DNA from: a virus
Length of the DNA stretch: 10,134 bases
Virus genome (UHGV): UHGV-1424210
Strand: one strand, 5' to 3'
Below are positions 1 through 10,134 of this stretch, in pieces (position 1 is the first letter of the stretch; each line of letters begins with the position of its first letter). The notes under the pieces are model-generated. The model was not told where the DNA came from, searched no databases, and was given only the letters and a program-made list of their open reading frames with translations. A program made the position numbers and the translations under genes.

Positions 1-96
1 AGATTCGCGCCATGTGCTTTTGCCCTTGAGCAATTCCTTAAAGAGTACAGGGAAACGCGCCCATTGCAGGTATGGCAACGAACTGAACCAGACTGA
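1..96 (+). CDS. Possible 3' end of a gene entering from the left edge (partial, 31 codons, stop TGA 94-96)
   Basis: Frame 1 is open from the window edge to TGA at 94-96 (…RFAPCAFALEQFLKEYRETRPLQVWQRTEPD). A plus-strand intrinsic terminator lies about 65 bp downstream. No recognisable motif. Confidence 0.25.
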   Translation, partial: RFAPCAFALEQFLKEYRETRPLQVWQRTEPD

Positions 97-160
97 TTGC
101 ATTGCCCACCAGCCTGATAGCGGCTATCATCCCCGTGCTTATGTTTAGTGTTTTCCCATT

Positions 161-189
161 GGCGACCGCCCCCGGTCGCCTTTGTTTTA
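161..189 (+). terminator. Rho-independent terminator, plus-strand orientation
   Basis: Perfect 8-bp GC-rich stem GGCGACCG (161-168) / CGGTCGCC (173-180) with loop CCCC, followed by TTTGTTTTA (181-189). On the minus strand the hairpin is not followed by a U-tract. Confidence 0.5.
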
Positions 190-207
190 TGTGTCATATG
201 CTCCCCT

Positions 208-417
208 TTACACTGCCTTACCTGAATTAATGCGATCCCGGCTTTTAACCCATTCCATAACCTCGGACAGCAGCCACCCTACAGAACGACCGCCCAGATT
301 AAGACGTGACGGAAAGCTCCCTTTTTTCTCCAGTTCGTAGCGTGTAGTGCGACACACTCCAGTTAACTTACGACATTCATCCTCACGGATTACGCGATCT
401 TCATTTATTTCACGCAT
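208..417 (-). CDS. alpA: AlpA-family (prophage CP4-57 regulatory protein / excisionase-like) helix-turn-helix regulator, about 69 aa
   Basis: Translation MREINEDRVIREDECRKLTGVCRTTRYELEKKGSFPSRLNLGGRSVGWLLSEVMEWV fits the AlpA/Xis-like HTH pattern. Start set at the ATG at 417-415. The ORF-track start at 504 is a GTG directly abutting AAGAGG, with no usable spacing, and would add 29 non-conserved residues. Confidence 0.75.
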   Translation of the reverse strand: MREINEDRVIREDECRKLTGVCRTTRYELEKKGSFPSRLNLGGRSVGWLLSEVMEWVKSRDRINSGKAV

Positions 418-836: not shown

Positions 837-2075
837 TCAAGAATTTTGGGGGTAAATTCGCGGGGTCATAACAACGATTTTTTCATCATTGTTCTGGAGA
901 AGCTCGAGACGGTCTACCCATAGATTAAGAGCATCACGTTTTGCATCAAGGTAGCGGGAGTGGTTATAGACTCGTTGCATCCCTGGCATCTGGTGGGCTG
1001 TAAGCTGCTCGACAATATGCGGATCCACGCCTAAATCGTTCAGCATGGTTGTAAATGTGTGCCGGATATCGTGTAACGTCCAGGGGGCTTGATTAATTCG
1101 TCTGTGCGCTGTTCTTCCGTACTCTGCTACCGAAGATTGTCCTTTCAGTTCACCAAGCAATAAGCCTGTGTGTCTGTTCTGCTCCACCAGTTGCGTGACG
1201 AACGGCAAAATGCTTTCCGGTATTGGCCTGAATATGGCGACCTTCGTTTTGCTGTGCTCCTTCGGTACTGTCCAGAGCATTTCTTTAAAATCCCACTCCT
1301 GCACCTCAGAGCGCCTTAGCTCAGTGGTACGGCATCCAAAAACAATCAGGAGGCGAATTAGGGCGCTGTAGTATGGCGGGAATATTTTGTCATCCAGGGC
1401 GCGGAGTAATTCCCCAAGCTCCTTATTTGTTAGTACGCGCTCGCTCACTTCTGCTTTTTTTCCCACATCACCGACAACCATATCATCAAGAACGTTGCTG
1501 ATTGCGTATCGTCGTTTTCGGCAGTACTTAAGCGCCTGTTTGCATACCTGTAGCAAAAATCCGGCAGATACAGGGCTTCGCTTTGCCATCTGGTCAAAAC
1601 ATGCCAACCAGTGCCGTAGCTCGCATTTTTCCAACGGCAAAGCGCCAATCTGGCTGATTATGTGTTTATTGATCCGGCTTTTCAGTGATTCGTAGTCAGT
1701 GCGCTTTTCCTTTGCATACGATTCAAGCCAGTAAGTGAGCGCTTCCTTAACTGTCACGGGGGCTAACGCATCCTGTACAGCACGATTAAGCTCATAGCGC
1801 GGATTTTTCCCCTCAGCCAGCCAGGCGCGACACTGTGCTGCTTTTTCCCTGGCTGCTTTCAGGCTCAGATCGGGATAATTGCCCAGTCTCAGACGTTCCG
1901 GTGATACCTGCCTACCAGTTCCGGCCCTGTAAGTGAAATACCAGGTTAACAGGCCGCTGGTGGAATGTCTTACGCTAAGATTGCCACCGTCATTAAAAAA
2001 GGCGTTTTTTGTGGTTGGTGATCCGCTTAATTTTCGTAAAAGAGTGTCGCTAAGTCTATGAATTGCGCTGCTCAT
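837..2075 (-). CDS. int: Site-specific tyrosine recombinase (P4-type integrase), 412 aa
   Basis: Full-length ORF starting with ATG at 2075-2073. C-terminal catalytic-domain signatures: conserved Arg in LIVFGCRTTELRR, His-x-x-Arg box WTLHDIRHTFTT, and a C-terminal Tyr region QRVYNHSRYLD. Overall resemblance to P4/CP4-57-type integrases. Confidence 0.9.
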   Translation of the reverse strand: MSSAIHRLSDTLLRKLSGSPTTKNAFFNDGGNLSVRHSTSGLLTWYFTYRAGTGRQVSPERLRLGNYPDLSLKAAREKAAQCRAWLAEGKNPRYELNRAVQDALAPVTVKEALTYWLESYAKEKRTDYESLKSRINKHIISQIGALPLEKCELRHWLACFDQMAKRSPVSAGFLLQVCKQALKYCRKRRYAISNVLDDMVVGDVGKKAEVSERVLTNKELGELLRALDDKIFPPYYSALIRLLIVFGCRTTELRRSEVQEWDFKEMLWTVPKEHSKTKVAIFRPIPESILPFVTQLVEQNRHTGLLLGELKGQSSVAEYGRTAHRRINQAPWTLHDIRHTFTTMLNDLGVDPHIVEQLTAHQMPGMQRVYNHSRYLDAKRDALNLWVDRLELLQNNDEKIVVMTPRIYPQNS

Positions 2076-2098: not shown

Positions 2099-2355
2099 AT
2101 TAACTACACCATTGACTACACCGTGCATCGTACAAGGGCAAACCGTGACGAACAAGAGCGAACAAGGAAAACAAAATTTTCCTTTATAATCATAGCGATG
2201 AATGCACACAAAACACTACCACGAACACCCGCGAACACTAGATGATAAATAACTATCATTTATATCATTTAGTTAATTAGTCTTTATTTTTCATTATGTT
2301 GCAAATAACAAGCCCGTCAAAAACAGTGATATTAACTACACCATTAACTACACCG
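2099..2355. repeat. Pair of 25-bp direct repeats, ATTAACTACACCATT(G/A)ACTACACCG, at 2099-2123 and 2331-2355
   Basis: The two copies differ at one position and are 232 bp apart. Each is itself a tandem duplication of ATT(A/G)ACTACACC. They flank the putative int promoter. Confidence 0.7.
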
Positions 2356-2386
2356 CTTCACGAACAATATCGAACAACCGCGAACA
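2149..2386. repeat. Seven CGAACA hexamers in helically phased (10-bp) groups upstream of int
   Basis: CGAACA at 2149 and 2159; at 2222 and 2232; and at 2361, 2371 and 2381, with exact 10-bp spacing within each group. Candidate integrase arm-type or AlpA/RDF binding sites. Confidence 0.6.
2293..2320 (-). promoter_or_regulatory. Candidate sigma70 promoter directed toward int
   Basis: On the minus strand: -35 TTGACG (reverse complement of 2315-2320), 16-bp spacer, -10 CATAAT (reverse complement of 2293-2298). Predicted leader of about 210 nt to the int ATG at 2075. Lies between the repeat groups. Confidence 0.35.
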
Positions 2387-2642
2387 AAGATCAACACGCT
2401 TTAATCATTATCATTTTCCGGCTATCCGTCATGAAGCTGGTGGATGATCTGCGTGGTGATTTCCACCATTCAGAGCAGGGGCGGTCATCATGACCATGCC
2501 ATAACAAAAACCCCATATTCGTGGTTTTTCTGTGTCGGGGCTATTCTGCTGTTGCCGTGCTGGTGGATATTCTCCGGTATGCGGCTCCCCATATCGGCAT
2601 CAGGCCCACCAGCGTGAAGCGTTTTTCATTTTTCGCGGGTAT

Positions 2643-2702
2643 AAAAAATCGATGGGGCGGGCAGTCCTGAAGACGTCAGGGTACAGAGATTTGACCCGCC
2701 CC
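2643..2702 (-). terminator. Intrinsic terminator (minus strand): compound GC stem followed by U6
   Basis: GGGGCGGG (2654-2661) pairs with CCCGCCCC (2695-2702), enclosing an inner hairpin CCTGA-agacg-TCAGG (2666-2680). On the minus-strand RNA this is followed by AUCGAUUUUUUAU (plus-strand A-run 2643-2648). Confidence 0.5.
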
Positions 2703-2716
2703 TCCCTGTGCATGAG

Positions 2717-2752
2717 CACAATAAGTAACCGAAGGCGGAATTCCGCCCTCGG
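2717..2752 (-). terminator. Intrinsic terminator (minus strand): 10-bp stem around GGCGGAATTCCGCC plus U-rich tail
   Basis: Minus-strand RNA CCGAGGGCGG-AAUU-CCGCCUUCGG (one G-U pair) followed by UUACUUAUUGUG. First terminator reached after the packaging operon. Confidence 0.5.
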
Positions 2753-2784
2753 TACTTACATATGAGAAACGATATTTCTTCCAC

Positions 2785-2925
2785 CGATACCCTTTATTTG
2801 GGTATCGCGAGTAAGCCCCAAAATCTGGGTGTTACTCTTACTACCCAAACTACGGGTAGTTTCCGTAGTTTCATGGTCGAGTTGCAAATCTGCAACTCAC
2901 CCACCAGCCAACGCAATTTTGCGTT
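2785..2925. other. Cluster of four hairpins / inverted repeats in the untranslated region downstream of the packaging genes
   Basis: H1 CGATACCC-tttattt-GGGTATCG (2785-2807); H2 alternative stems ACTACCC/GGGTAGT (2840-2860) or AAACTACGG/CCGTAGTTT (2847-2871); H3 GAGTTGC-aaatct-GCAACTC (2879-2898); H4 AACGCA-attt-TGCGTT (2910-2925). Confidence 0.45.
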
Positions 2926-2943
2926 ATCGGGAATATCAGCAAG

Positions 2944-3324
2944 TTACCGCCGCAGTCGTTCCGGCTTCTTCCACTGGTAAGTACTTTTCGCGCTCTCCCT
3001 CCGTTGTTGAGAACGGCGACGGTATGCCAGCAACTCAAGGACTCTGGTTCGTATGTTGCGCATATCCACGCCGTTAAGCTCAATACCATCACGGCGCATC
3101 ACCTCAGCAACAACACGCGCGTAATTTTCGGCTATCACGCTGTCCGGCTGCGTGGCCTCCTGTTCGCCAGCCTGCTGGCTGATTCCGGTAATACTGCGGA
3201 TTATCCCGAGCGCTTCGGTCTCGGTCATGGTCATGGTCATGGCCTCCATAGTGATGGCGGGTCCTCCTTGTGGGGTGCCCTGCCACGGGGCGGGAGCATC
3301 GCGGAAAAAGGCTAGTTTTTGCAT
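2944..3324 (-). CDS. Hypothetical protein downstream of terS (126 aa from ATG 3324; more likely about 101 aa from ATG 3249)
   Basis: Same strand as the operon. A strong SD, AAGGAGGA, lies 13 nt upstream of the internal ATG at 3249; the ATG at 3324 has no SD. Contains an in-frame (ATGACC)3 repeat encoding MTMTMT. No recognisable family. Confidence 0.45.
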   Translation of the reverse strand: MQKLAFFRDAPAPWQGTPQGGPAITMEAMTMTMTETEALGIIRSITGISQQAGEQEATQPDSVIAENYARVVAEVMRRDGIELNGVDMRNIRTRVLELLAYRRRSQQRRESAKSTYQWKKPERLRR

Positions 3325-3485
3325 TTTTATTCGTCATCACCACCAATGCAATATATTGATATGACTTGATGTTTTATTTTTCGGTGTCGATTTCGATTGT
3401 TTTTTGTTCATCACTGACGCATAACGCCCACCAGCGCAACGCTGAAAGCCAGTCAGTAAACTGGCTTCGGTCATTGTGCACTACG

Positions 3486-4028
3486 TTACTTGTCTTTATC
3501 CGGCTGAAACTTATCAGGCACATTTCCGGTAGTTTCCATCAGATAATCGGACAGCATTCGCGGGATGTTTTCATCAAGTTTTGTGCATGCGTTACAGGCT
3601 CTGACAACTTCTTTTTTCAGGCCATCCAGCATGACGGGGGTCATCTGTGGGAAGCTCCTTTGCATAGTAAGCGGGAGGCTGTCCATGATTGATGAAATCT
3701 GACTCGCCAGTTTTGAAAGCGCGTACATGCAAAACTCTGTATCAATCACGTCACCGCGATCGCGCTCGTTTTTAAGTTCCTGCGCCTCCGCCTGTGCTGT
3801 CAGTAATCTGATCCTGACTCGTAAGAGTTCATCATCATCAATCTCGCCTTTGTCGTTTGTAAGCTGGCTAATTGCATTGTTAACCCTATTGTCTATCACG
3901 CTGGCAACATCATAAAACGCCTCACGGCCTTTACGTTCAACGGGAGTCACTCCCCACTTGTCGAATGCTGTAGCACTTACCCGGCAGCTTTGCGCCATGG
4001 TTTTTTTGTTCATCAGGTGCGATTTCAT
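3486..4028 (-). CDS. Terminase small subunit, lambda Nu1-like
   Basis: Full-length collinear similarity to lambda Nu1 as recalled: RLLTAQAEAQELKNERDRGDVIDTEFCMYALSKLASQISSIMDSLPLTMQRSFP… versus lambda RLTRAQADAQELKNARDSAEVVETAFCTFVLSRIAGEIASILDGLPLSVQRRFP…; C-terminus ENIPRMLSDYLMETTG versus ELIPGLLSEYIEQSG. The ORF-track start at 4031 is TTG; ATG candidates are 4028 and 4013 (MNKK…, matching lambda MEVNKK…). Confidence 0.85.
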   Translation of the reverse strand: MKSHLMNKKTMAQSCRVSATAFDKWGVTPVERKGREAFYDVASVIDNRVNNAISQLTNDKGEIDDDELLRVRIRLLTAQAEAQELKNERDRGDVIDTEFCMYALSKLASQISSIMDSLPLTMQRSFPQMTPVMLDGLKKEVVRACNACTKLDENIPRMLSDYLMETTGNVPDKFQPDKDK

Positions 4029-4129
4029 CAATATCCCAACTTGGTCAAGGTTTCAGGTTGGTGTGTTGGTGTTATCTTTCCCTTTTTATTCATGGAGATA
4101 GAGCAAACAACAAAACCACCACCACCACC

Positions 4130-4215
4130 CTGAAAAAGCTCATAAATAGCGAAAAACCGCAAGGTCGCCGCCCCGTAGCCTACCGGATCGCCGGAAAGGA
4201 CCCGCCAGCCAGAAC
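4130..4215 (-). other. Lambda-type cos site (cosQ/cosN-like); cosN cohesive-end sequence at 4162-4173
   Basis: Minus strand reads GGGCGGCGACCT at 4173-4162, identical to the lambda 12-nt cohesive end as recalled. Both flanks also resemble lambda: CGGGTCCTTTCCGGCGATCCGGTAGGCTACG upstream and TGCGGTTTTTCGCTATTTATGA downstream. About 135 bp upstream of the terS start, as in lambda. Confidence 0.8.
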
Positions 4216-4229
4216 GGGACCTAATTTCA

Positions 4230-4613
4230 TCAACCAATCAACTTATAGCGACCATCCCGTGCATTGCGACGTACACGCTCAATCTTGAGGCATAGCGCCG
4301 CATCTGGCTTTTTTGGGACAGGTACGCGGCAATATTCAGAAGCTCGAGGAATATTGTTTATCCAGTCGATCACTTCACTTAAATACCAGGCCTTACGCCC
4401 TTCCGTAACCTGTACGCGCTCGGGGAACTCTCCGCGAGCCTCAAGGTTTAGCAATGTGCGACGGCTAAGGGTAGTAAGTTCCATCACCTGATTCATATCA
4501 ACAAGGCGTTCACTTAAACGCATTTTGTCAGCAATAGCCTTTAATTCCTCTACTGCTGGATCCGGATACATCATTTCGGCAATTGGCTTAAGGTCATTGT
4601 AATGATTCTGCAT
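4230..4613 (-). CDS. AlpA-family HTH protein with an approximately 45-aa N-terminal extension (127 aa)
   Basis: C-terminal part VMELTTLSRRTLLNLEARGEFPERVQVTEGRKAWYLSEVIDWI matches the AlpA/excisionase-like HTH pattern. ATG at 4613 is preceded by SD AAGGGGGA at 5-nt spacing. Sits between the D-like gene and cos. Confidence 0.75.
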   Translation of the reverse strand: MQNHYNDLKPIAEMMYPDPAVEELKAIADKMRLSERLVDMNQVMELTTLSRRTLLNLEARGEFPERVQVTEGRKAWYLSEVIDWINNIPRASEYCRVPVPKKPDAALCLKIERVRRNARDGRYKLIG

Positions 4614-4624
4614 TGTATCCCCCT

Positions 4625-4966
4625 TTACACACGAGCCAGCGGCTGAACAGAAATACCTGAGCCAACAAACGCGGCAACCTTTGCCGACAGTTCTTTTACA
4701 GACTCAGGCCAGTTCAGAGCATCAACATTTAAAACACCTGTCTTATAAACCTGTGCCTGTGTTTTTTTCGCTGTGTCGATTTGTACAGCGGAAACATAAA
4801 CCGCTTTGCCTGCGCTCGTTCCATCCCATACCACTAGCGCACCAGTTGCATCTTCCTGCATCAGTGGCGTAAACGCAGGTATTACCCCTTTATTGGCTGA
4901 AAATATCCCCAGCGTAGTAACCAGTGCTTCAGTGCCAGACATGAGTTCAGTGTAATGAGTAGCCAT
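4625..4966 (-). CDS. Head decoration protein, lambda gpD-like (113 aa)
   Basis: Similar length to lambda D (110 aa), with shared motifs THY, TPLM, WDGT, KTG, WPE and a C-terminal AF-G-x-IS. SD AAGGGGGAG upstream of the ATG at 4966. Starts 10 bp after the capsid gene stop. Confidence 0.8.
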   Translation of the reverse strand: MATHYTELMSGTEALVTTLGIFSANKGVIPAFTPLMQEDATGALVVWDGTSAGKAVYVSAVQIDTAKKTQAQVYKTGVLNVDALNWPESVKELSAKVAAFVGSGISVQPLARV

Positions 4967-4975
4967 TGCTCCCCC

Positions 4976-6022
4976 TTAGCCAATGCGAACGGTAACAAAA
5001 CGATTGATGCGGGCCGGTATTGGCTGTGGTGCTGAATGTGTCTGCACATATTCAATAGCCGGATCACCAGGCACAATATAGTTTTTCGGTGCAAGTTCGG
5101 CTTTAGTCAGCCCCATCCGGATTAGCTCCGGATCCTGAATACCGCCATAAGCGACAATCCCCTGAAGAGCCGTATTGCCAAGCACCATCAAATCAGGATC
5201 AAGGAAATATTTTTCAGTTCCGTCCTCGTCGGTATAACGCCCGCTGTAAACAACAATCGCAACATCGCCCATATACCCTTTAAAACTCACCGAATCACCA
5301 AGGTCTTTAAGGGCCGTTTCCAGTTCGGAATTAGAACCACGACGAGTATCCAGAGCCTCTTTTATCGCCCTGAATGAACGGTATTTCTTCCATACATTAC
5401 CGCCCATAATGATAATATTAGTGACGCCCTCACTAAATTCTGCGTAGCTCTCAATATCATCATTTGGATCAAAAGCTTCTTTATCCTTACCTGACCACTC
5501 AGCACCGCCAGACTGAGTGATGATATTTTGTGGTTTAATATTCCAGTCCAGCTCATAACGTTCAATACCATCGCCCTCAATGATATTTTTCCCCGTTGTG
5601 ATTGCCTGAACGGCAAGCCATTCAATACGTGCACGAATAGCTTTAGCCTGATTTACAATCGCCTGTTTAACTTTAATATTACGCGCTCCAAAAGCATTGT
5701 ATTGCTCAGGTGATACACCAGCAGGGCGCACAGCTAACTTATTTGGATCAATGCTGCTTTTCGGTTTCATATAGCCAGGGCGAATTGTTTTTGATTCGTA
5801 TCCCTCATCTCGTGAAACTTTACTGCCCACCATAGGAGAGCAAAACGCCGCGATCGGGATATTTGGATCGTCGATCGTATCAAGAATAATGTCTCTCGAT
5901 TCAAACATTACCGAGCGAGTGAAAAACAAACTGGTAAACAACGCATTTAATTTTTTTTGCACATCTTCAGCATTAGCCACCTGCACAAGCTGTGTAGGCG
6001 AATATAAGTCAACCATACTCAT
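4976..6022 (-). CDS. Major capsid protein, lambda gpE-like (about 348 aa)
   Basis: Collinear similarity to lambda gpE as recalled, e.g. NIITQSGGAEWSGKDKEAFDPNDDIESYA and ALDTRRGSNSELETALKDLGDSVSFKGYMGDVAIVVYSGRY versus lambda NITQSGGTEWSKRDKSTYDPTDDIEAYA and KLDTRRGSNSELETAVKDLGKAVSYKGMYGDVAIVVYSGQY. Start set by homology at MSMVDLY (ATG 6022); the alternative ATG at 6016 has better SD spacing. The ORF-track start at 6103 is TTG. Confidence 0.9.
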   Translation of the reverse strand: MSMVDLYSPTQLVQVANAEDVQKKLNALFTSLFFTRSVMFESRDIILDTIDDPNIPIAAFCSPMVGSKVSRDEGYESKTIRPGYMKPKSSIDPNKLAVRPAGVSPEQYNAFGARNIKVKQAIVNQAKAIRARIEWLAVQAITTGKNIIEGDGIERYELDWNIKPQNIITQSGGAEWSGKDKEAFDPNDDIESYAEFSEGVTNIIIMGGNVWKKYRSFRAIKEALDTRRGSNSELETALKDLGDSVSFKGYMGDVAIVVYSGRYTDEDGTEKYFLDPDLMVLGNTALQGIVAYGGIQDPELIRMGLTKAELAPKNYIVPGDPAIEYVQTHSAPQPIPARINRFVTVRIG

Positions 6023-6187
6023 CCTCTTTACATTCATTACAAATAATTGTGAATATATTCTATTACCGATGTCTGCTATGCGAATACATGCAACCAAGTG
6101 CAATGTTGTATAAAATATGCTGTGACAACTTCAGTGCTGATAATTCGTGTTAATGTATTTACTTCCTTTGGTCGGGATTTATGTAGC

Positions 6188-6216
6188 ATGCCGGAAAATC
6201 TATTTTTTTCCGGCAT
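6188..6216. other. 11-bp-stem hairpin between the SSB-like and capsid genes (terminator-like)
   Basis: ATGCCGGAAAA (6188-6198) / TTTTCCGGCAT (6206-6216) with a 7-nt loop. A T-rich tract follows on the plus strand only, so its role in the minus-strand operon is uncertain. Confidence 0.35.
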
Positions 6217-6233
6217 CTTTTTGTTTGCAGAAT

Positions 6234-6656
6234 TTAAAACGGTATATTATCGCCGTACGGATCATCATTCCCCGACTGTTGTTTTGCCCTGTTCAGTGCG
6301 TCAGTGGCCTGCCCCTGCTGGCCTTTTTTGCCGCCCGGTCGCGCTGTTCGCGCACTGATCACGCTGTCTGCGATAACCTGCCAGCCCTGCCGCGTTTCGC
6401 CGTTCTGGCCTGTCCACTGGCTTACCTGCATGTTACCCGCCACGCTCACCAGTTCGCCTTTGTGGTGTTTTGCCAGTGCGTCGGCCTGTCTGCCAAACGC
6501 CAGGACGGATAACCACATCATCGCCGTTCCGTCATCTGCCTGGCTGCACGGAAGGGGGACCGCCATACTAGCCATCGCCATTTGTGTACCCTTGCTGGTG
6601 GTCTTTAACTGCGGGTCAGCCACCAGCCGTCCGTAAGCCGCTATCTGTGCTGTCAT
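6234..6656 (-). CDS. Single-stranded DNA-binding protein (SSB)-like, 140 aa
   Basis: OB-fold-like core WLSVLAFGRQADALAKHHKGELVSVAGNMQVSQWTGQNGETRQGWQVIADSV resembles E. coli SSB [51 protein letters not shown]. Gly/Gln-rich linker and acidic C-terminal tip DDPYGDNIPF (compare SSB DFDDDIPF). SD GGAGAG upstream; the start ATG overlaps the upstream stop (ATGA). Confidence 0.65.
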   Translation of the reverse strand: MTAQIAAYGRLVADPQLKTTSKGTQMAMASMAVPLPCSQADDGTAMMWLSVLAFGRQADALAKHHKGELVSVAGNMQVSQWTGQNGETRQGWQVIADSVISARTARPGGKKGQQGQATDALNRAKQQSGNDDPYGDNIPF

Positions 6657-6895
6657 GCTGTCTGCTCTCCGGTTTTAACGTTGATGGTTGTCACCTGTTC
6701 CGCTTCGGCAATCTCCCGTTCTGTCAGCGTGGCAAAGTTTGCAGCTGCCGTTGTCATGAATGCGCTAATCAGTTCGGGATGTGCTTTCGCATATCCTTCC
6801 CCGGCGTTGCGGTCGATGATTTTTATCGCCACTCTCAGCCAGTGCTCTGTAAGGTCAATAGCGCGGTAGTGTGGTTGTTTGCGGTTTTCCTTCAT
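6653..6895 (-). CDS. Hypothetical protein, 80 aa, translationally coupled to the SSB-like gene
   Basis: ATG-initiated ORF whose stop overlaps the SSB-like start (ATGA). First gene after the iteron region. No recognisable motif. Confidence 0.5.
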   Translation of the reverse strand: MKENRKQPHYRAIDLTEHWLRVAIKIIDRNAGEGYAKAHPELISAFMTTAAANFATLTEREIAEAEQVTTINVKTGEQTA

Positions 6896-6935
6896 AGTTC
6901 AGATCTCAATTTTTCGTATATATATACAAAACAGT

Positions 6936-7250
6936 GCGGGTTATGCGGGTTAGCGGGTTATCTTCGCTTGCTAAGTATTTTTTATTCCTTAATATCAATA
7001 CATTACAAAATTAACTGTTTACTGTTTAGCCGTGGCGTAACCCGCAAAATGCTCAAAATAACCCGCAAACGGGGTTTTTTCTGCGGGTTACGCGTGGCTG
7101 TTTGCTGTCACTTCCTGTTATTCATCTGCGGGTTATAATCGCACTTTTGCGGGTTATAACTGCCGTTTTGCGGGTTACGTGCGGGTTATTGATTTCCTTT
7201 TTATTCATGCAGTTAATGCACTTATACACAGAGTAACCCACATAACCCGC
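6936..7250. repeat. Iteron array (9-bp GCGGGTTAY) flanking an AT-rich stretch: candidate replication origin
   Basis: Direct copies at 6936-6944, 6945-6953, 6954-6962, 7083-7091, 7128-7136, 7149-7157, 7170-7178 and 7181-7189. Inverted copies (TAACCCGC) at 7036-7044, 7058-7066 and 7242-7250, plus a degenerate one near 7233-7240. AT-rich region 6962-7030. Immediately downstream of the Rep stop at 7274. Confidence 0.7.
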
Positions 7251-7273
7251 AACTTTTCACCTCACACAGGGGG

Positions 7274-9397
7274 TTAATCTTCTGCCTCAGGCTGGAACAT
7301 CAGCACGTAAAAAACATGCTGCTTCCCCCCAATTTTGCCGAGAGCCTTTTTCTTGTAACGGCGATCGTTACCCGCTTCCAGCATTCCGGCAGCACTCAAC
7401 GCGCGGGCAAAGTGGGACGGGTTAAATCCCTGTGCGATCTCCCCCTCAAACACATGAGGAAACGTGTAAAAACGGAACTCATCATCTTCATTTCTGATAC
7501 TCCCCTTTCTGTATCCGGCAAGGTCTTTAATCGGTAAATCACGTTCATCACTGTTTGGGTAAGGAAGGTATCGACTGAACCCGAACGACGACAAAAACGC
7601 CTCAGCCTGTTCAACCATCTGTTTAAATTCCCTGTTACCCGTGCCGAACTCCTTCACCCAGGCATTAAAGTTATGCTGTATTGCGTCCCGGCATTCCTGC
7701 GCGGCCCAGCCAGTTACATGACCGGAAAGCACAAGCGCGGCCTCCAGTATGGCGAAACGCTCACCCACGCGGTGGACTTGCTCGCCGTAGCTCTCCGGTA
7801 TCAGGTTGCGCCACCGTTCGCGGCATTCCCTTACCGTATCCTTTGCCTCCTGCTGGTGGCCTGCCAGCCATTTAACCCACTCACGACCCGCTGCCCCGTG
7901 ATTTTCTGTCCAGGCATCCTTTAACGCGTCTGCGTGCGCCTTTCCGGTGCTGTATTCGTGAAAGTGCGTGGCTTTTTCCATCGGAACGTTAAGCAGGCGG
8001 ACAAGCTGCCCCGCTTTGACTTTTATCCCCTCCGTTTTGAGGAATGTCTCAACGTCCATTTCTCCGGTGCTGATTGCCACCGTGCGCCAGTGTTTTATCT
8101 CCCGGTTGCCGCCGTCCTTCGCCCCCTGTAATTTCCCGGAACCGTTAAACAACGTATAGGCTGACGTGGACACCTCCCGCGCGTTTCCGGCCTGGCCTAT
8201 TTCATCCAGGGGTAACAGCCCGTCGTTGTGCGCCTCTGCCTCGTTAGCGATACCTAACGCTGTGCCGTACCAGGTCAGCCGTTGTGCGTCCGGCTCTCCC
8301 CATAAACTTGATGCGATGTTCTGCGTGGTGGTTTTCCCTGCCGATGACTGTTCGAAAAGATGTACCCCGAAGCCGTCAGCACCAACAAGGCCAATCAAAG
8401 GTGCTGCCAGTGACGTGGCAACACCCAGCATCATGGACGGATTGCCACCAGCCAGCCGCGCCACGCAGTCGCGCCAGCCCTCCGACGTACCCGCAACCGA
8501 ATAGCCATTAACAGTGGCACTTTTTCCGGTAAACAGGATCGGTTTTTCAGAATCACCAATGATTGAGCCGTCCGGCATGATATACGCGCCAAAATGCCAG
8601 CCCGTTGTTGTGCTTAGCTGCCATTCCTCATGGCTTCCGCTTAACTGCATCCAGTCAGCCAGGATAGCCCTGTATTTGCCGTTTGTTGTCACGTTCAGCC
8701 CGTGATCTTTAAGCAACCGCCAGCCGTCACGGTCGCCAATGCCACCACACGGGATCGCCATTGTGATGACTTCATGGTTTGCTAATTTTTTCCAGCGCAT
8801 CACGCGGTAATGCTCTTTACCGATCGTCCCCGTTCCCAGTAGTTCAAGCGGAGAACATAACCACGTCTCAGGCCGGATAATTTCGCCTGACTGCTTATCC
8901 ACTTTGGGCGTTACCCAGAAAACACCATCGACGCGACTTTCAACGCGGGGCTTTAATTCATCATCCTGATAGCATGGCTCTTTTTTCTTTACAGGCAGTT
9001 CAACTACCTTTTTCTTTTCCGCCTGCTCTGCCCGTTCACGTTCCAGATATTCGCGCCAGTTCTCCCGTTTCTGGCTGTGCATTCCTTCAGGGTAATAATC
9101 AGCATCCCTGACACCTGCCGCTGCCAGTTTCTGCCCGATGGTATTAACAAGCCCCGGACGCAATAACCCCGCCTGGTAGAGACGCACGCGATAGCGTCCG
9201 TCCGGTACGATTTGCAGGTTGTCCAGTTCGGCAAGTTGTTGCTCTCCAAGCCAGACAGGTGGCACGTTATCGCCAGCCAGTCGCCCGTCCTGTTCCTGCC
9301 ACTGCTTCGCATGTGCCCACGCATCACTACCCGCAAAAATGATGACTTCCGTCATTTTGTCACGCGGCTGGTGTTTTAAATTTGGCGCTTTTTTCAT
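7274..9397 (-). CDS. Replication initiator (primase/helicase-like ATPase; resembles DUF927-type proteins of CP4-57/PICI-like islands), about 707 aa
   Basis: Long ORF with P-loop-like motif FEQSSAGKTT and Walker-B-like LLPLDEIG. Adjacent iteron origin. Start set at ATG 9397 (SD GGAGAGAG, ATGA overlap with the upstream ORF stop); the ORF-track start at 9412 is GTG. Family assignment is from memory, not from a search. Confidence 0.8.
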   Translation of the reverse strand: MKKAPNLKHQPRDKMTEVIIFAGSDAWAHAKQWQEQDGRLAGDNVPPVWLGEQQLAELDNLQIVPDGRYRVRLYQAGLLRPGLVNTIGQKLAAAGVRDADYYPEGMHSQKRENWREYLERERAEQAEKKKVVELPVKKKEPCYQDDELKPRVESRVDGVFWVTPKVDKQSGEIIRPETWLCSPLELLGTGTIGKEHYRVMRWKKLANHEVITMAIPCGGIGDRDGWRLLKDHGLNVTTNGKYRAILADWMQLSGSHEEWQLSTTTGWHFGAYIMPDGSIIGDSEKPILFTGKSATVNGYSVAGTSEGWRDCVARLAGGNPSMMLGVATSLAAPLIGLVGADGFGVHLFEQSSAGKTTTQNIASSLWGEPDAQRLTWYGTALGIANEAEAHNDGLLPLDEIGQAGNAREVSTSAYTLFNGSGKLQGAKDGGNREIKHWRTVAISTGEMDVETFLKTEGIKVKAGQLVRLLNVPMEKATHFHEYSTGKAHADALKDAWTENHGAAGREWVKWLAGHQQEAKDTVRECRERWRNLIPESYGEQVHRVGERFAILEAALVLSGHVTGWAAQECRDAIQHNFNAWVKEFGTGNREFKQMVEQAEAFLSSFGFSRYLPYPNSDERDLPIKDLAGYRKGSIRNEDDEFRFYTFPHVFEGEIAQGFNPSHFARALSAAGMLEAGNDRRYKKKALGKIGGKQHVFYVLMFQPEAED

Positions 9398-9693
9398 TTC
9401 TGCTCTCTCCACGCGGCAATCATGTTTTTCAGTTCCTGTAGTTTTTTATCCACATCCACACGTGACACATGGTTATTTCTGGAAGTCGGGATTTCCCGCC
9501 GGAATCTGCAAATAAAGATCTCCACGTTCAGCGAACTAAGAAATGAATAGCCATCACGGATAAAATACACACGGTCAAACATCAGTTCTTTTACCGTTAC
9601 TCTGTTACCGTTCTTATCCAGATAAATAGCGCCGGGGATAATTTGGGGGTGTGCATAACCGCTGGCAGTCAAGCCAGATAAATACGTTCTCAT
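9394..9693 (-). CDS. Hypothetical protein, 99 aa, translationally coupled to rep
   Basis: ATG at 9693 with an upstream GGGGAT; stop overlaps the rep ATG. No recognisable motif. Confidence 0.55.
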   Translation of the reverse strand: MRTYLSGLTASGYAHPQIIPGAIYLDKNGNRVTVKELMFDRVYFIRDGYSFLSSLNVEIFICRFRREIPTSRNNHVSRVDVDKKLQELKNMIAAWREQK

Positions 9694-9699
9694 GATTAT

Positions 9700-10020
9700 T
9701 TATCCCCGATTTGAATCAGTATTCGCTTTCTTTATAGCATTTAATGCATCTGTGGCATTTTCAATGGTGCACCGTAACGAAATATCAAAATGTCCAAGCA
9801 TTGCCAGTAACAAACCGATATTACCCATATCAATGCGCATGGCCTTTTCGTCATAGTCCTCATTTTCTGACGCATGCCACATCAGGCTACCAATTGACGC
9901 AACAGCCATTGATATATTGTCAGTAGCCCCATCCGCAGCGGAATAAACCTTTTTAGCAATATCATGCTCACAGTTAAAATGCGGATTAATCAGGTACTGG
10001 TAATTTGACATATCAGGCAT
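9700..10020 (-). CDS. Hypothetical protein, 106 aa
   Basis: ATG-initiated ORF. Its start overlaps the stop of the upstream partial ORF by 8 nt. Six bp separate its stop from the next start. Confidence 0.55.
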   Translation of the reverse strand: MPDMSNYQYLINPHFNCEHDIAKKVYSAADGATDNISMAVASIGSLMWHASENEDYDEKAMRIDMGNIGLLLAMLGHFDISLRCTIENATDALNAIKKANTDSNRG

Positions 10021-10134
10021 GGCACACCCCCTGACGAATACGGGCAGCGAATACCATCACGCAGCCAGCCGGGGATTGCAGGCGTGCTTCCTGTTCGCTG
10101 GTGGCCTCAATGGTAATCACGCGCGGTTGTGCCG
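10013..10134 (-). CDS. Partial CDS (C-terminal 39 codons) entering from the right edge
   Basis: Open minus-strand frame from the window edge to TGA at 10015-10013 (…VITIEATSEQEARLQSPAGCVMVFAARIRQGVCHA), overlapping the next gene start; indicates an operon of at least four genes. Confidence 0.4.
   Translation of the reverse strand, partial: AQPRVITIEATSEQEARLQSPAGCVMVFAARIRQGVCHA

Follow-up and report, generated by a model that had tools for sequence, protein, structure and literature searches.

In UHGV-1424210, a viral genome stretch of 10,134 nucleotides (nt) that we refer to as the window, positions 7274–10134 hold a chain of four open reading frames (ORFs), all on the minus strand, which ends in a primase gene and is followed by an iteron origin. 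Our best explanation, which we regard as probable, is that this region serves an EcCICFT073-type phage-inducible chromosomal island (PICI) as its early replication operon, in the order Icd-like leader cistron, X106 (a protein of 106 amino acids, aa), RgdR-family DUF4222 protein, Pri-Rep primase and iteron origin, and that it would be worked by the RNA-gated, translationally coupled mechanism set out below. The features of the region are as follows.

10013..10134, minus strand: Icd-like leader cistron, 3′ part (39 codons and the stop), from NF033153, phrog_6196 and RefSeq
9700..10020, minus strand: X106 (106 aa), from phrog_15327, synteny and predicted fold
9394..9693, minus strand: RgdR-family DUF4222 protein (99 aa), from Pfam DUF4222
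8977..9397, minus strand: PriN, the N-terminal domain of Pri-Rep (about 140 aa), from phrog_2850 and a DNA breakpoint
7274..8976, minus strand: DUF927 primase/helicase body of Pri-Rep, from Pfam DUF927 and phrog_1139
6934..7253, no strand assigned: replication origin (iterons), from repeat families

The genes of the chain are joined end to end. The partial ORF at its head runs off the end of the window and stops at TGA 10015–10013, and the 106-aa ORF starts at ATG 10020–10018, giving an 8-nt overlap (ATGCCTGA); this second ORF ends at TAA 9702–9700, 6 nt (9694–9699) ahead of the ATG at 9693 that opens the 99-aa ORF, whose stop (TGA 9396–9394) forms an ATGA overlap with the primase ATG at 9397. 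A program-made ORF list begins the primase at GTG 9412, but RefSeq and the overlap geometry favour the ATG at 9397 (707 aa). Purine-rich, Shine–Dalgarno-like runs precede each start, and a consensus scan of the minus strand within the chain found no promoter-like or terminator-like sites. ATGA-type junctions recur in CFT073, O157 Sakai, Klebsiella, Hafnia and Serratia, where the proteins are merely 25–35% identical, and both small genes are under purifying selection, with dN/dS of 0.27 for X106 and 0.36 for the 99-aa gene among 47 distinct E. coli copies. Because the junctions recur, the small ORFs are under purifying selection and the scan found no internal promoter or terminator, the chain is more than chance. 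A sequence-only reading of this DNA had already described an overlapping stop/start chain (8-nt overlap, 6-nt gap, ATGA) and a tightly coupled operon ending in a replication gene; its coordinates hold on the minus strand, the junctions prove to be conserved in distant satellites, and a DUF927 primase does stand last. The 'four genes' of that reading are a lower bound, as the window ends within the first gene, including 39 of its 67 codons, and a co-oriented 80-aa ORF and ssb lie beyond the origin.

The same data bear on the suggestion that a long primase mRNA leader contains one or both small ORFs by chance, for which it can be said that X106 belongs to no curated family. We give this next to no credence: it is effectively refuted by the dN/dS values, by homologues at 25–35% identity in other genera that keep conserved motifs and synteny, by the confident fold predicted for X106, and by the Pfam match of the 99-aa ORF, whose homologue RgdR has a deletion phenotype.

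At 100% identity, the 3.1-kb operon region matches a stretch of the C 237-04 chromosome (E. coli O2:K2:H1; locus record L001), which carries a complete 10.7-kb island between clpS and cspD. The island unit measures 10,724 bp between att cores of 18–22 bp, and the window is a circular permutation of it: positions 1–2263 are the int/alpA end and 2242–10134 the remainder, with the two parts joined at the att core in attP configuration and with 596 bp of the island, in which the operon promoter region lies, missing from the window. This attP-type junction is compatible with the window being the island in excised or tandem form. The features that mark this end of the island are as follows.

2242–2263: att core ATGATA[A/G]ATAACTATCAT, in attP configuration
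837–2075, minus strand: int
208–417, minus strand: alpA (Pfam Phage_AlpA, 3.1e-16)

In C 237-04 the island reads int, alpA, an Icd-like pseudogene, a divergent YlcI/YnfO-family gene, the Icd-like gene, the 106-aa gene, DUF4222 and the DUF927 primase, and then the 80-aa gene, ssb, a lambda E-type capsid gene, a lambda D-type decoration gene, a second AlpA-like helix-turn-helix gene, a Nu1-like small terminase gene and a hypothetical gene. Pfam, PHROG or NCBIfam matches were obtained for int, AlpA, SSB, capsid E, decoration D, the Nu1-like small terminase (TerS), DUF927, DUF4222 and the Icd-like protein. An integrase and an AlpA-family regulator thus stand together at one end; pri-rep is followed by an origin made of two iteron sets around an AT-rich region; and the unit, att-bounded and in the range of about 10–15 kb, lacks a full set of phage structural and lysis genes, its only structural or packaging genes being capsid E, decoration D and the Nu1-like TerS. 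Matching features are described for EcCICFT073 (PMC6092414). Judged by its gene content, the element is a Gram-negative PICI of the EcCICFT073 type, that is, a phage satellite, and the earlier reading of it as a satellite is borne out by int, alpA, pri-rep with its iteron origin, the 10.7-kb size and the capsid E, decoration D and Nu1-like genes, as in EcCICFT073.

Two other satellite types were considered and rejected. Capsid-forming PICIs (cf-PICIs) carry an HK97 capsid, protease, portal, connectors, TerS and a large terminase (TerL); the 10.7-kb unit has only the lambda-E-type capsid, decoration D and Nu1-like TerS from among such functions, and no portal, protease or TerL. For a P4-like satellite, no psu, sid, delta, epsilon (Phage_ASH) or Pox_D5-type alpha was found with Pfam among the ORFs scanned, which included part of the window's small ORFs, and the primase is of the DUF927 type. 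Within the packaging module, the gene called 'small terminase' follows the second AlpA-like helix-turn-helix gene and aligns with the Nu1 profile solely over the profile's C-terminal half (positions 77–161 of 164; window 3486–4031 and 4230–4613, both minus strand); we presume that it may be a packaging-redirection (Rpp-like) protein instead of a true TerS. In the chromosomal interval beside the island, between infA/tRNA-Ser and clpA, a single CRISPR-DR4 repeat (L001 4295–4322, minus strand; Rfam, 50 bits) is probably the known residual CRISPR repeat of this E. coli locus.

Profile matches assign the first and last genes of the chain. The partial ORF is Icd-like, with 53.7 bits to NCBIfam NF033153 (cut-off 25) on the 39 residues in the window and a match to phrog_6196 (1.7e-21), and the full gene in the identical chromosome copy encodes 67 aa (RefSeq, L001 15014–15217). 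A second Icd-like gene lies directly downstream of alpA (window 1–197; L001 15598–15928) and is annotated as a pseudogene lacking the C-terminus; the island therefore keeps in it a remnant duplicate of the operon's first cistron. The primase body matches Pfam DUF927 (3.7e-47) and phrog_1139, 'DNA primase' (6.6e-180), and the protein is 89% identical to ECs1582 of O157 Sakai (Sp7). Its N-terminal domain, PriN (MKxAPNxK...VIFAGSDAW...), belongs to no Pfam family and to phrog_2850, and is common to the DUF927-type and D5-type primases of PICIs; P4 alpha has no PriN. Immediately 3′ of pri-rep, at least 12 copies of TGCGGGTTA[T/C] lie in both orientations around AT-rich stretches, an iteron arrangement that matches the PICI origin layout of PMC6092414.

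The 99-aa protein, in which the sequence-only reading saw no recognisable motif, is a clear DUF4222 protein (Pfam 8.8e-17; 60.9 bits against a gathering cut-off of 27); that statement stands for the 106-aa protein, which has no Pfam family. The profile and structure-prediction searches that the same reading had proposed for both led from the 99-aa protein to the DUF4222/RgdR family and gave no significant fold match for the 106-aa protein, and neither small protein showed the confident homology to housekeeping proteins that it had named as evidence against itself; profile searches of the small proteins against PDB sequences returned nothing below E 0.27. Basic (pI 9.8) and joined to the primase by the ATGA overlap, the 99-aa protein shares length and position with RgdR (ECs1581/c1493) at about 30–35% identity, and in the CFT073 and Sakai islands the RgdR gene likewise precedes the primase directly and overlaps it by 4 nt. 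At residues 20–22 RgdR has RGD and the window protein P20-G21-A22. We therefore class it, from these alignments, as a divergent member of the RgdR/DUF4222 family without the RGD motif. Its core is predicted, with low confidence, to be a small SH3/Tudor-like barrel with a C-terminal helix.

What is published on RgdR concerns virulence. RgdR, the 99-aa basic product of ECs1581 on O157 island OI-51, activates LEE1, an operon of the enterocyte effacement locus (LEE), and type III secretion (PMC3378721; review PMC10877973), and when expressed in enterohaemorrhagic (EHEC) and uropathogenic (UPEC) E. coli it represses motility and alters Congo-red binding; it binds DNA non-specifically, and its deletion gives a phenotype (PMC3378721). 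The RGD at residues 20–22 was reported to be functionally important (Flockhart 2012, PMC3378721), and in the ED1a variant a change at residue 20 abolished activation of type III secretion (PMC3378721; PMC10877973). RgdR is encoded by all E. coli PICIs analysed in PMC6092414, where it is placed among the accessory genes.

DUF4222 genes also occur well outside PICIs. With RgdR as the query, tblastn found DUF4222 cores in 43 records of temperate phages, SfIV, SfII, Klebsiella phages and Stx2a phages among them; the window's own two small proteins matched none of 50,697 phage records, and it was classical RgdR alone that reached the phage DUF4222 ORFs. In phage vB_EcoM-720R4 (L096 3438–3659; Pfam 3.2e-19) and in the e14 element of K-12 (L098 3002–3181), which has shared sequence, a DUF4222 ORF lies in an alternative frame within the 3′ half of ymfM, and its stop overlaps the start of an O-like replication gene by 11 nt. 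The ORF carries no annotation in the K-12, SfIV and vB_EcoM-720R4 records, ymfM itself being annotated as a cell-division inhibitor, and most of the ORF would lie within the ymfM clone that has been published. In e14/SfIV-type prophages, then, DUF4222 genes sit directly 5′ of, and overlap, O-like initiator genes. That DUF4222 precedes unrelated types of initiator argues for a role tied to the replication and early module and against a dedicated virulence function; we found no description of this DUF4222-before-initiator rule in the literature searched, coverage of which was incomplete.

These observations weigh on the view that the RgdR-like gene is a host-directed 'moron', a regulator of virulence and motility with no part in the satellite life cycle. 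The effects of RgdR on LEE1, type III secretion, motility and Congo-red binding in EHEC and UPEC (PMC3378721), together with its listing as an accessory gene (PMC6092414), speak for such a gene, yet it lies in the core early operon, overlapping the primase start, whether or not the strain carries LEE, and DUF4222 ORFs hold the equal position before prophage initiators. The window allele, moreover, lacks RGD, the motif from which RgdR takes its name and in which the residue-20 change abolished activation of type III secretion in ED1a. A further consideration comes from H-NS. Loss of hns raises LEE expression, lowers motility and raises curli. By analogy, the published RgdR phenotypes would resemble relief of H-NS silencing and would fit a general DNA-binding or anti-silencing activity better than a switch dedicated to virulence. 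We consider the moron view very unlikely. The RgdR-like protein is most likely, although we say so with modest confidence, a DNA-binding protein, small and basic with a barrel fold, that acts beside the replication initiator, and the effects of RgdR on host transcription would then be a by-product of that activity.

X106, by comparison, is a narrow family. The protein is acidic (pI 4.8) and has no Pfam, NCBIfam or PADLOC match, phrog_15327 (2e-71) being its sole family match. An exhaustive HMMER search of 1.84 billion representatives returned 21 X106 proteins, and a profile search of 5.8 billion proteins returned about 133 clusters, all of about 100 aa and from Escherichia, Klebsiella, Hafnia, Serratia and Yersinia, to which locus scans add Pantoea and Gilliamella. 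The family motif is GxSxIGxLM[FW]xAxxxxxY...DMxxIG. In an alignment-driven AlphaFold model (predicted local distance difference test score, pLDDT, 85) two long helices form a hairpin, on whose surface one motif is sharply conserved. Taken together, these searches place X106 as a conserved, satellite-specific and uncharacterised family confined to Enterobacterales and Gilliamella.

Several other identities for X106 were rejected. As a membrane protein it would be atypical, its maximum 19-residue Kyte–Doolittle value of 1.47 (family median 1.37) falling under the usual 1.6, and a soluble protein is judged more likely. A defence function finds no PADLOC match for either small protein. The name 'ubiquinol-cytochrome C reductase', borne by many homologues in Klebsiella, Serratia and Raoultella (NCBI and UniRef; for example P0076, P0080 and P0085), has no Pfam or NCBIfam support, and the genes are in satellites; the label is probably a propagated misannotation. 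Homology of X106 or the DUF4222 protein to P4 epsilon or ORF106 was also rejected (hhalign probability <1%).

At 93 loci, from genomes and viral contigs, X106 lies in the small-gene run between alpA or the Icd-like gene and a satellite primase, a synteny upstream of the primase that holds wherever the flank sufficed. The commonest order, at about 59 of the 93, is Icd, X106, DUF4222 and PriN, followed by a D5-type or DUF927-type body. Variants of it are seen in Hafnia and Serratia cf-PICIs, with a 112–115-aa protein (X115; phrog_6610) in place of DUF4222, in Klebsiella islands within prophage late genes, with a phrog_2196 gene interposed, and in the Gilliamella loci, where X106 comes first. In CFT073 and Sakai, which carry classical RgdR alleles, other small genes replace X106 (phrog_1478, 5146/2512, 24341, 2196, 5796 and 3672). 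One X106-homologue island of Klebsiella (L004/L005 4258–10532) lies between prophage head genes (minor capsid and a major capsid fragment) and tail genes, a layout that matches the 'helper-embedded PICI' configuration (PMC10111431).

Within E. coli the small genes move as a block. X106 is present in 474 of 5,426 complete genomes, and in 471 of those 474 X106 and this DUF4222 allele form one block at ≥90% identity. In strain CFSAN061763 the small proteins are identical to those of C 237-04, and the att site is the same, with a D5-type primase and a different head module. DNA identity of 99.5% to the island L023 stops at window 8977, inside the primase gene just after PriN, beyond which the primases are unrelated, placing an inter-island recombination breakpoint in the lysine-rich linker after PriN. 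Judged from these alignments, the inherited unit is the Icd-like gene, X106, DUF4222 and PriN, which recombines at the primase linker with different helicase and packaging modules. A tie of DUF4222 to one primase type is rejected, the same allele preceding DUF927-type and D5-type bodies, with the qualification that the shared PriN travels along.

Such linkage raises the possibility that the small proteins are replication accessory factors of Pri-Rep at the origin, for example a copy-number regulator or a loader, as P4 Cnr acts on alpha. The small genes are immediately upstream of the primase and coupled to it in every lineage and are co-inherited with PriN; DUF4222 ORFs overlap the starts of O-like initiators in e14/SfIV-type prophages; RgdR binds DNA; and P4 itself has cnr between epsilon and alpha. 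However, rep and ori of EcCICFT073 alone sufficed for plasmid maintenance (PMC6092414), so the small genes are not essential for initiation, and the proteins have no sequence similarity to P4 ORF106 or ORF151. Unrelated small genes replace X106 in CFT073 and Sakai, and identical small proteins serve two unrelated helicase bodies. An accessory role at the origin is therefore, in our estimation, possible but doubtful.

Alternatively, X106 may be a helper-directed antirepressor or interference factor, occupying the slot of P4 epsilon or of P1 immI Ant. In P4 the geometry is equal, the Icd-like ORF being overlapped by 8 nt by epsilon (95 aa), and the PHROG families of our Icd-like ORF carry the name 'transcriptional repressor', as does the P4 'cI ORF' product; a direct BLASTP comparison of the two was not significant (E 0.13). 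An acidic helical hairpin with a conserved surface motif is typical of protein binders, and in EcCIMP1-like PICIs an antirepressor and a member of the Ash family (that of P4 epsilon) are conserved alongside the primase (PMC11773190). Against this, X106 resembles neither epsilon nor known antirepressors in sequence or fold; it is conserved at 90–100% identity in 474 genomes, whereas helper-specific factors often diversify; and the characterised E. coli PICIs are induced by helpers, not vice versa. We regard this specific role as unlikely. More generally, X106 is most likely, again with modest confidence, an early factor that dimerises, binds protein and is directed at host or helper.

The case for an RNA gate on the operon comes from the DNA upstream of it in C 237-04. 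An Rfam scan of the 1.7 kb upstream of the operon gave a single match, to SymR (RF01809; 32.8 bits, E about 1e-4), over the full model (1–77) at L001 15218–15290. This SymR-like RNA is antisense to the operon and starts at the base adjoining the Icd-like ATG, and we extend it to the following feature.

L001 15218–15297 (84–163 nt beyond the right end of the window), plus strand: predicted cis-antisense RNA of about 75–80 nt, covering the Icd-like 5′ untranslated region (UTR) and Shine–Dalgarno sequence

Across a set of 36 distinct segments of leader plus 5′ ORF, representing 25 distinct 80-nt leaders, the layout is common: hairpin, TCTAACCACCAACG, hairpin, Shine–Dalgarno sequence, ATG. RNAalifold folds the antisense strand into two hairpins, one of them terminator-like, and a U-rich tail, with compensatory changes in 12 of the 24 pairs and pairing in 96.8% of cells, against 35–54% in slid-partner controls; none of 500 shuffles reaches the observed values. 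On the sense strand the same columns pair in 80.8% of cells, 96 G.U cells turning to C.A, and since these G.U cells pair solely on the antisense strand, the structure is therefore selected on that strand. An extended –10 box, TG[G/A]TAT[G/A]AT, is present in all 36 sequences at Icd-like codons 3–5, 7 nt ahead of the point where the RNA is predicted to start.

A covariance model derived from the leader alignment matched 22 loci, every one on the antisense strand; loci of Pantoea, Serratia, Gilliamella and O157 Sakai from outside the training set are among them. Against P4, the Klebsiella islands and e14 it matched none. At least 1,323 of 5,426 E. coli genomes contain the antisense sequence; among the 30 matches listed it nearly always abuts an Icd-like gene (the exceptions being one ash-family gene and a few unannotated sites) and in none is an RNA annotated. 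A sense RNA of the C4/CI type was rejected, as no Rfam C4-family match was found even at E up to 1 and the covariance model misses P4. By its geometry the predicted antisense RNA resembles SymR, without being a curated SymR member, and we found no description of an antisense RNA of PICI leaders in the literature that we searched, again with incomplete coverage.

Just upstream, a sigma-70-like operon promoter (TTGACG-17-TAAATT) is flanked by three GTGTTnAACAC repeats (L001 15300–15420) and adjoins the divergent YlcI/YnfO-family gene. Other islands (L006, L023, L024–L082) have different repeats at the same places and a differing N-terminus of the divergent YlcI-like gene, so that repeats and gene together look like a repressor–operator specificity set. 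AlpA is the sole regulator reported for Gram-negative PICIs, and no repressor was identified in that work (PMC6092414).

The mechanism that we propose joins these elements. By analogy with EcCICFT073, which AlpA switches on when induced by a helper phage (PMC6092414), helper-triggered AlpA expression would start transcription about 80 nt upstream of the Icd-like gene. The SymR-like cis-antisense RNA would mask the Icd-like Shine–Dalgarno sequence and so gate translation; once the Icd-like cistron is translated, ribosomes would pass from gene to gene across the 8-nt overlap, then the 6-nt gap and lastly the ATGA overlap, and X106, the RgdR-like protein and Pri-Rep would appear together, as in the logic of P1 c4-icd-ant.

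A number of points weigh against this account. The SymR match, at 32.8 bits, is below the Rfam gathering score of 61, and coding constraint confounds the conservation of the –10 box; the first 28 Icd-like codons fall outside the window, as do the promoter and the antisense RNA. Gram-negative PICIs are described as transcribed in one direction (Fillol-Salom 2018, PMC6092414), and this element departs from that rule: in L001, CFT073 and L023 a YlcI/YnfO-family gene adjoining the operon promoter is annotated on the other strand, with homologues also in the Serratia and Pantoea loci, and the predicted antisense RNA would likewise run against the operon. For X106, Foldseek searches of PDB and BFVD gave generic helical hairpins only (best E 0.5–0.8), which were not used, and the role proposed for it comes from gene position. 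Finally, the co-inheritance of the small genes with PriN may be linkage and not function.

Neither this kind of operon, nor this kind of island, nor the RgdR family is new, but the combination of alleles in the island is. It is closest to EcCICFT073 and EcCIEDL933 (OI-51, Sp7; PMC6092414; cf-PICI preprint 10.1101/2022.09.08.507074), with which it shares int, alpA, a small-gene run, DUF4222 overlapping pri-rep, an iteron origin, the 80-aa gene and ssb, and with EcCICFT073 also the capsid E and decoration D homologues (c1499/c1500). In contrast, its small-gene run consists of X106 alone, where CFT073 has four unrelated small ORFs and Sakai ECs1577–1580, its DUF4222 allele is about 30–33% identical, and its att site is clpS|cspD. 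Against RgdR (ECs1581) specifically, the 99-aa DUF4222 protein is alike in being basic and directly 5′ of, and overlapping, the primase, and differs in its 30% identity and in PGA for RGD.

Among less closely related systems, the left operon of P4 runs vis(ORF88), 'cI ORF', epsilon, ORF151, ORF106 and alpha. As here, there is an AlpA/Vis-type gene upstream, the gene for a protein of about 100 aa overlaps an Icd-like ORF by 8 nt, and further small genes lead to a primase–helicase; P4 is also RNA-controlled, as we predict for the window operon. However, X106 and DUF4222 have no detectable homology to epsilon, ORF151 or ORF106, and the P4 CI RNA comes from the sense strand, whereas the structured RNA predicted here is antisense. 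In the immI region of P1 (c4 RNA, icd, ant), a small RNA at the icd ribosome-binding site controls the downstream gene via translational coupling. An Icd-family leader cistron and the small-RNA block are what the proposed control of the window operon has in common with it; the P1 c4 RNA, however, is processed from the same transcript and is not cis-antisense, and the downstream genes differ. SymR of K-12, an antisense RNA of about 77 nt with two hairpins and a promoter within the 5′ end of the target ORF, mainly blocks translation of SymE (Kawano 2007, PMC1891008). The predicted RNA would be like it in its full complementarity to the target 5′ UTR and Shine–Dalgarno sequence, its two hairpins and its predicted promoter inside the target ORF, and differs in its target, here an Icd-like cistron at the head of a satellite replication operon and there an AbrB-fold toxin.

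A broader reading would join all of these strands. The operon would be an RNA-gated switch of the P1 immI/P4 type, with antisense RNA and operators blocking the chain; X106, placed as P4 epsilon and P1 Ant are, would be a new antirepressor-like protein directed at helper or host; DUF4222 would be a general partner of Pri-Rep and of lambdoid O; and DNA-binding or anti-silencing activity would explain the pleiotropy of RgdR and may contribute to the e14 ymfM phenotypes. Taken as a whole we think this combination distinctly unlikely, and we hold to the narrower reading of an EcCICFT073-type early replication operon.

The genes between alpA and the primase occur in about a quarter of complete E. 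coli genomes and are essentially unstudied, save for RgdR as a virulence regulator of EHEC, and they bear on how Gram-negative PICIs are silenced and switched on. As an outcome of this analysis, the 99-aa gene is placed in the RgdR family, DUF4222 genes are seen habitually to overlap initiator genes, and X106 is defined as a satellite gene that has been conserved. Should the predicted antisense RNA prove real, PICI induction would gain a further, post-transcriptional level of control, and the tight chaining of the genes of this operon would have an explanation.

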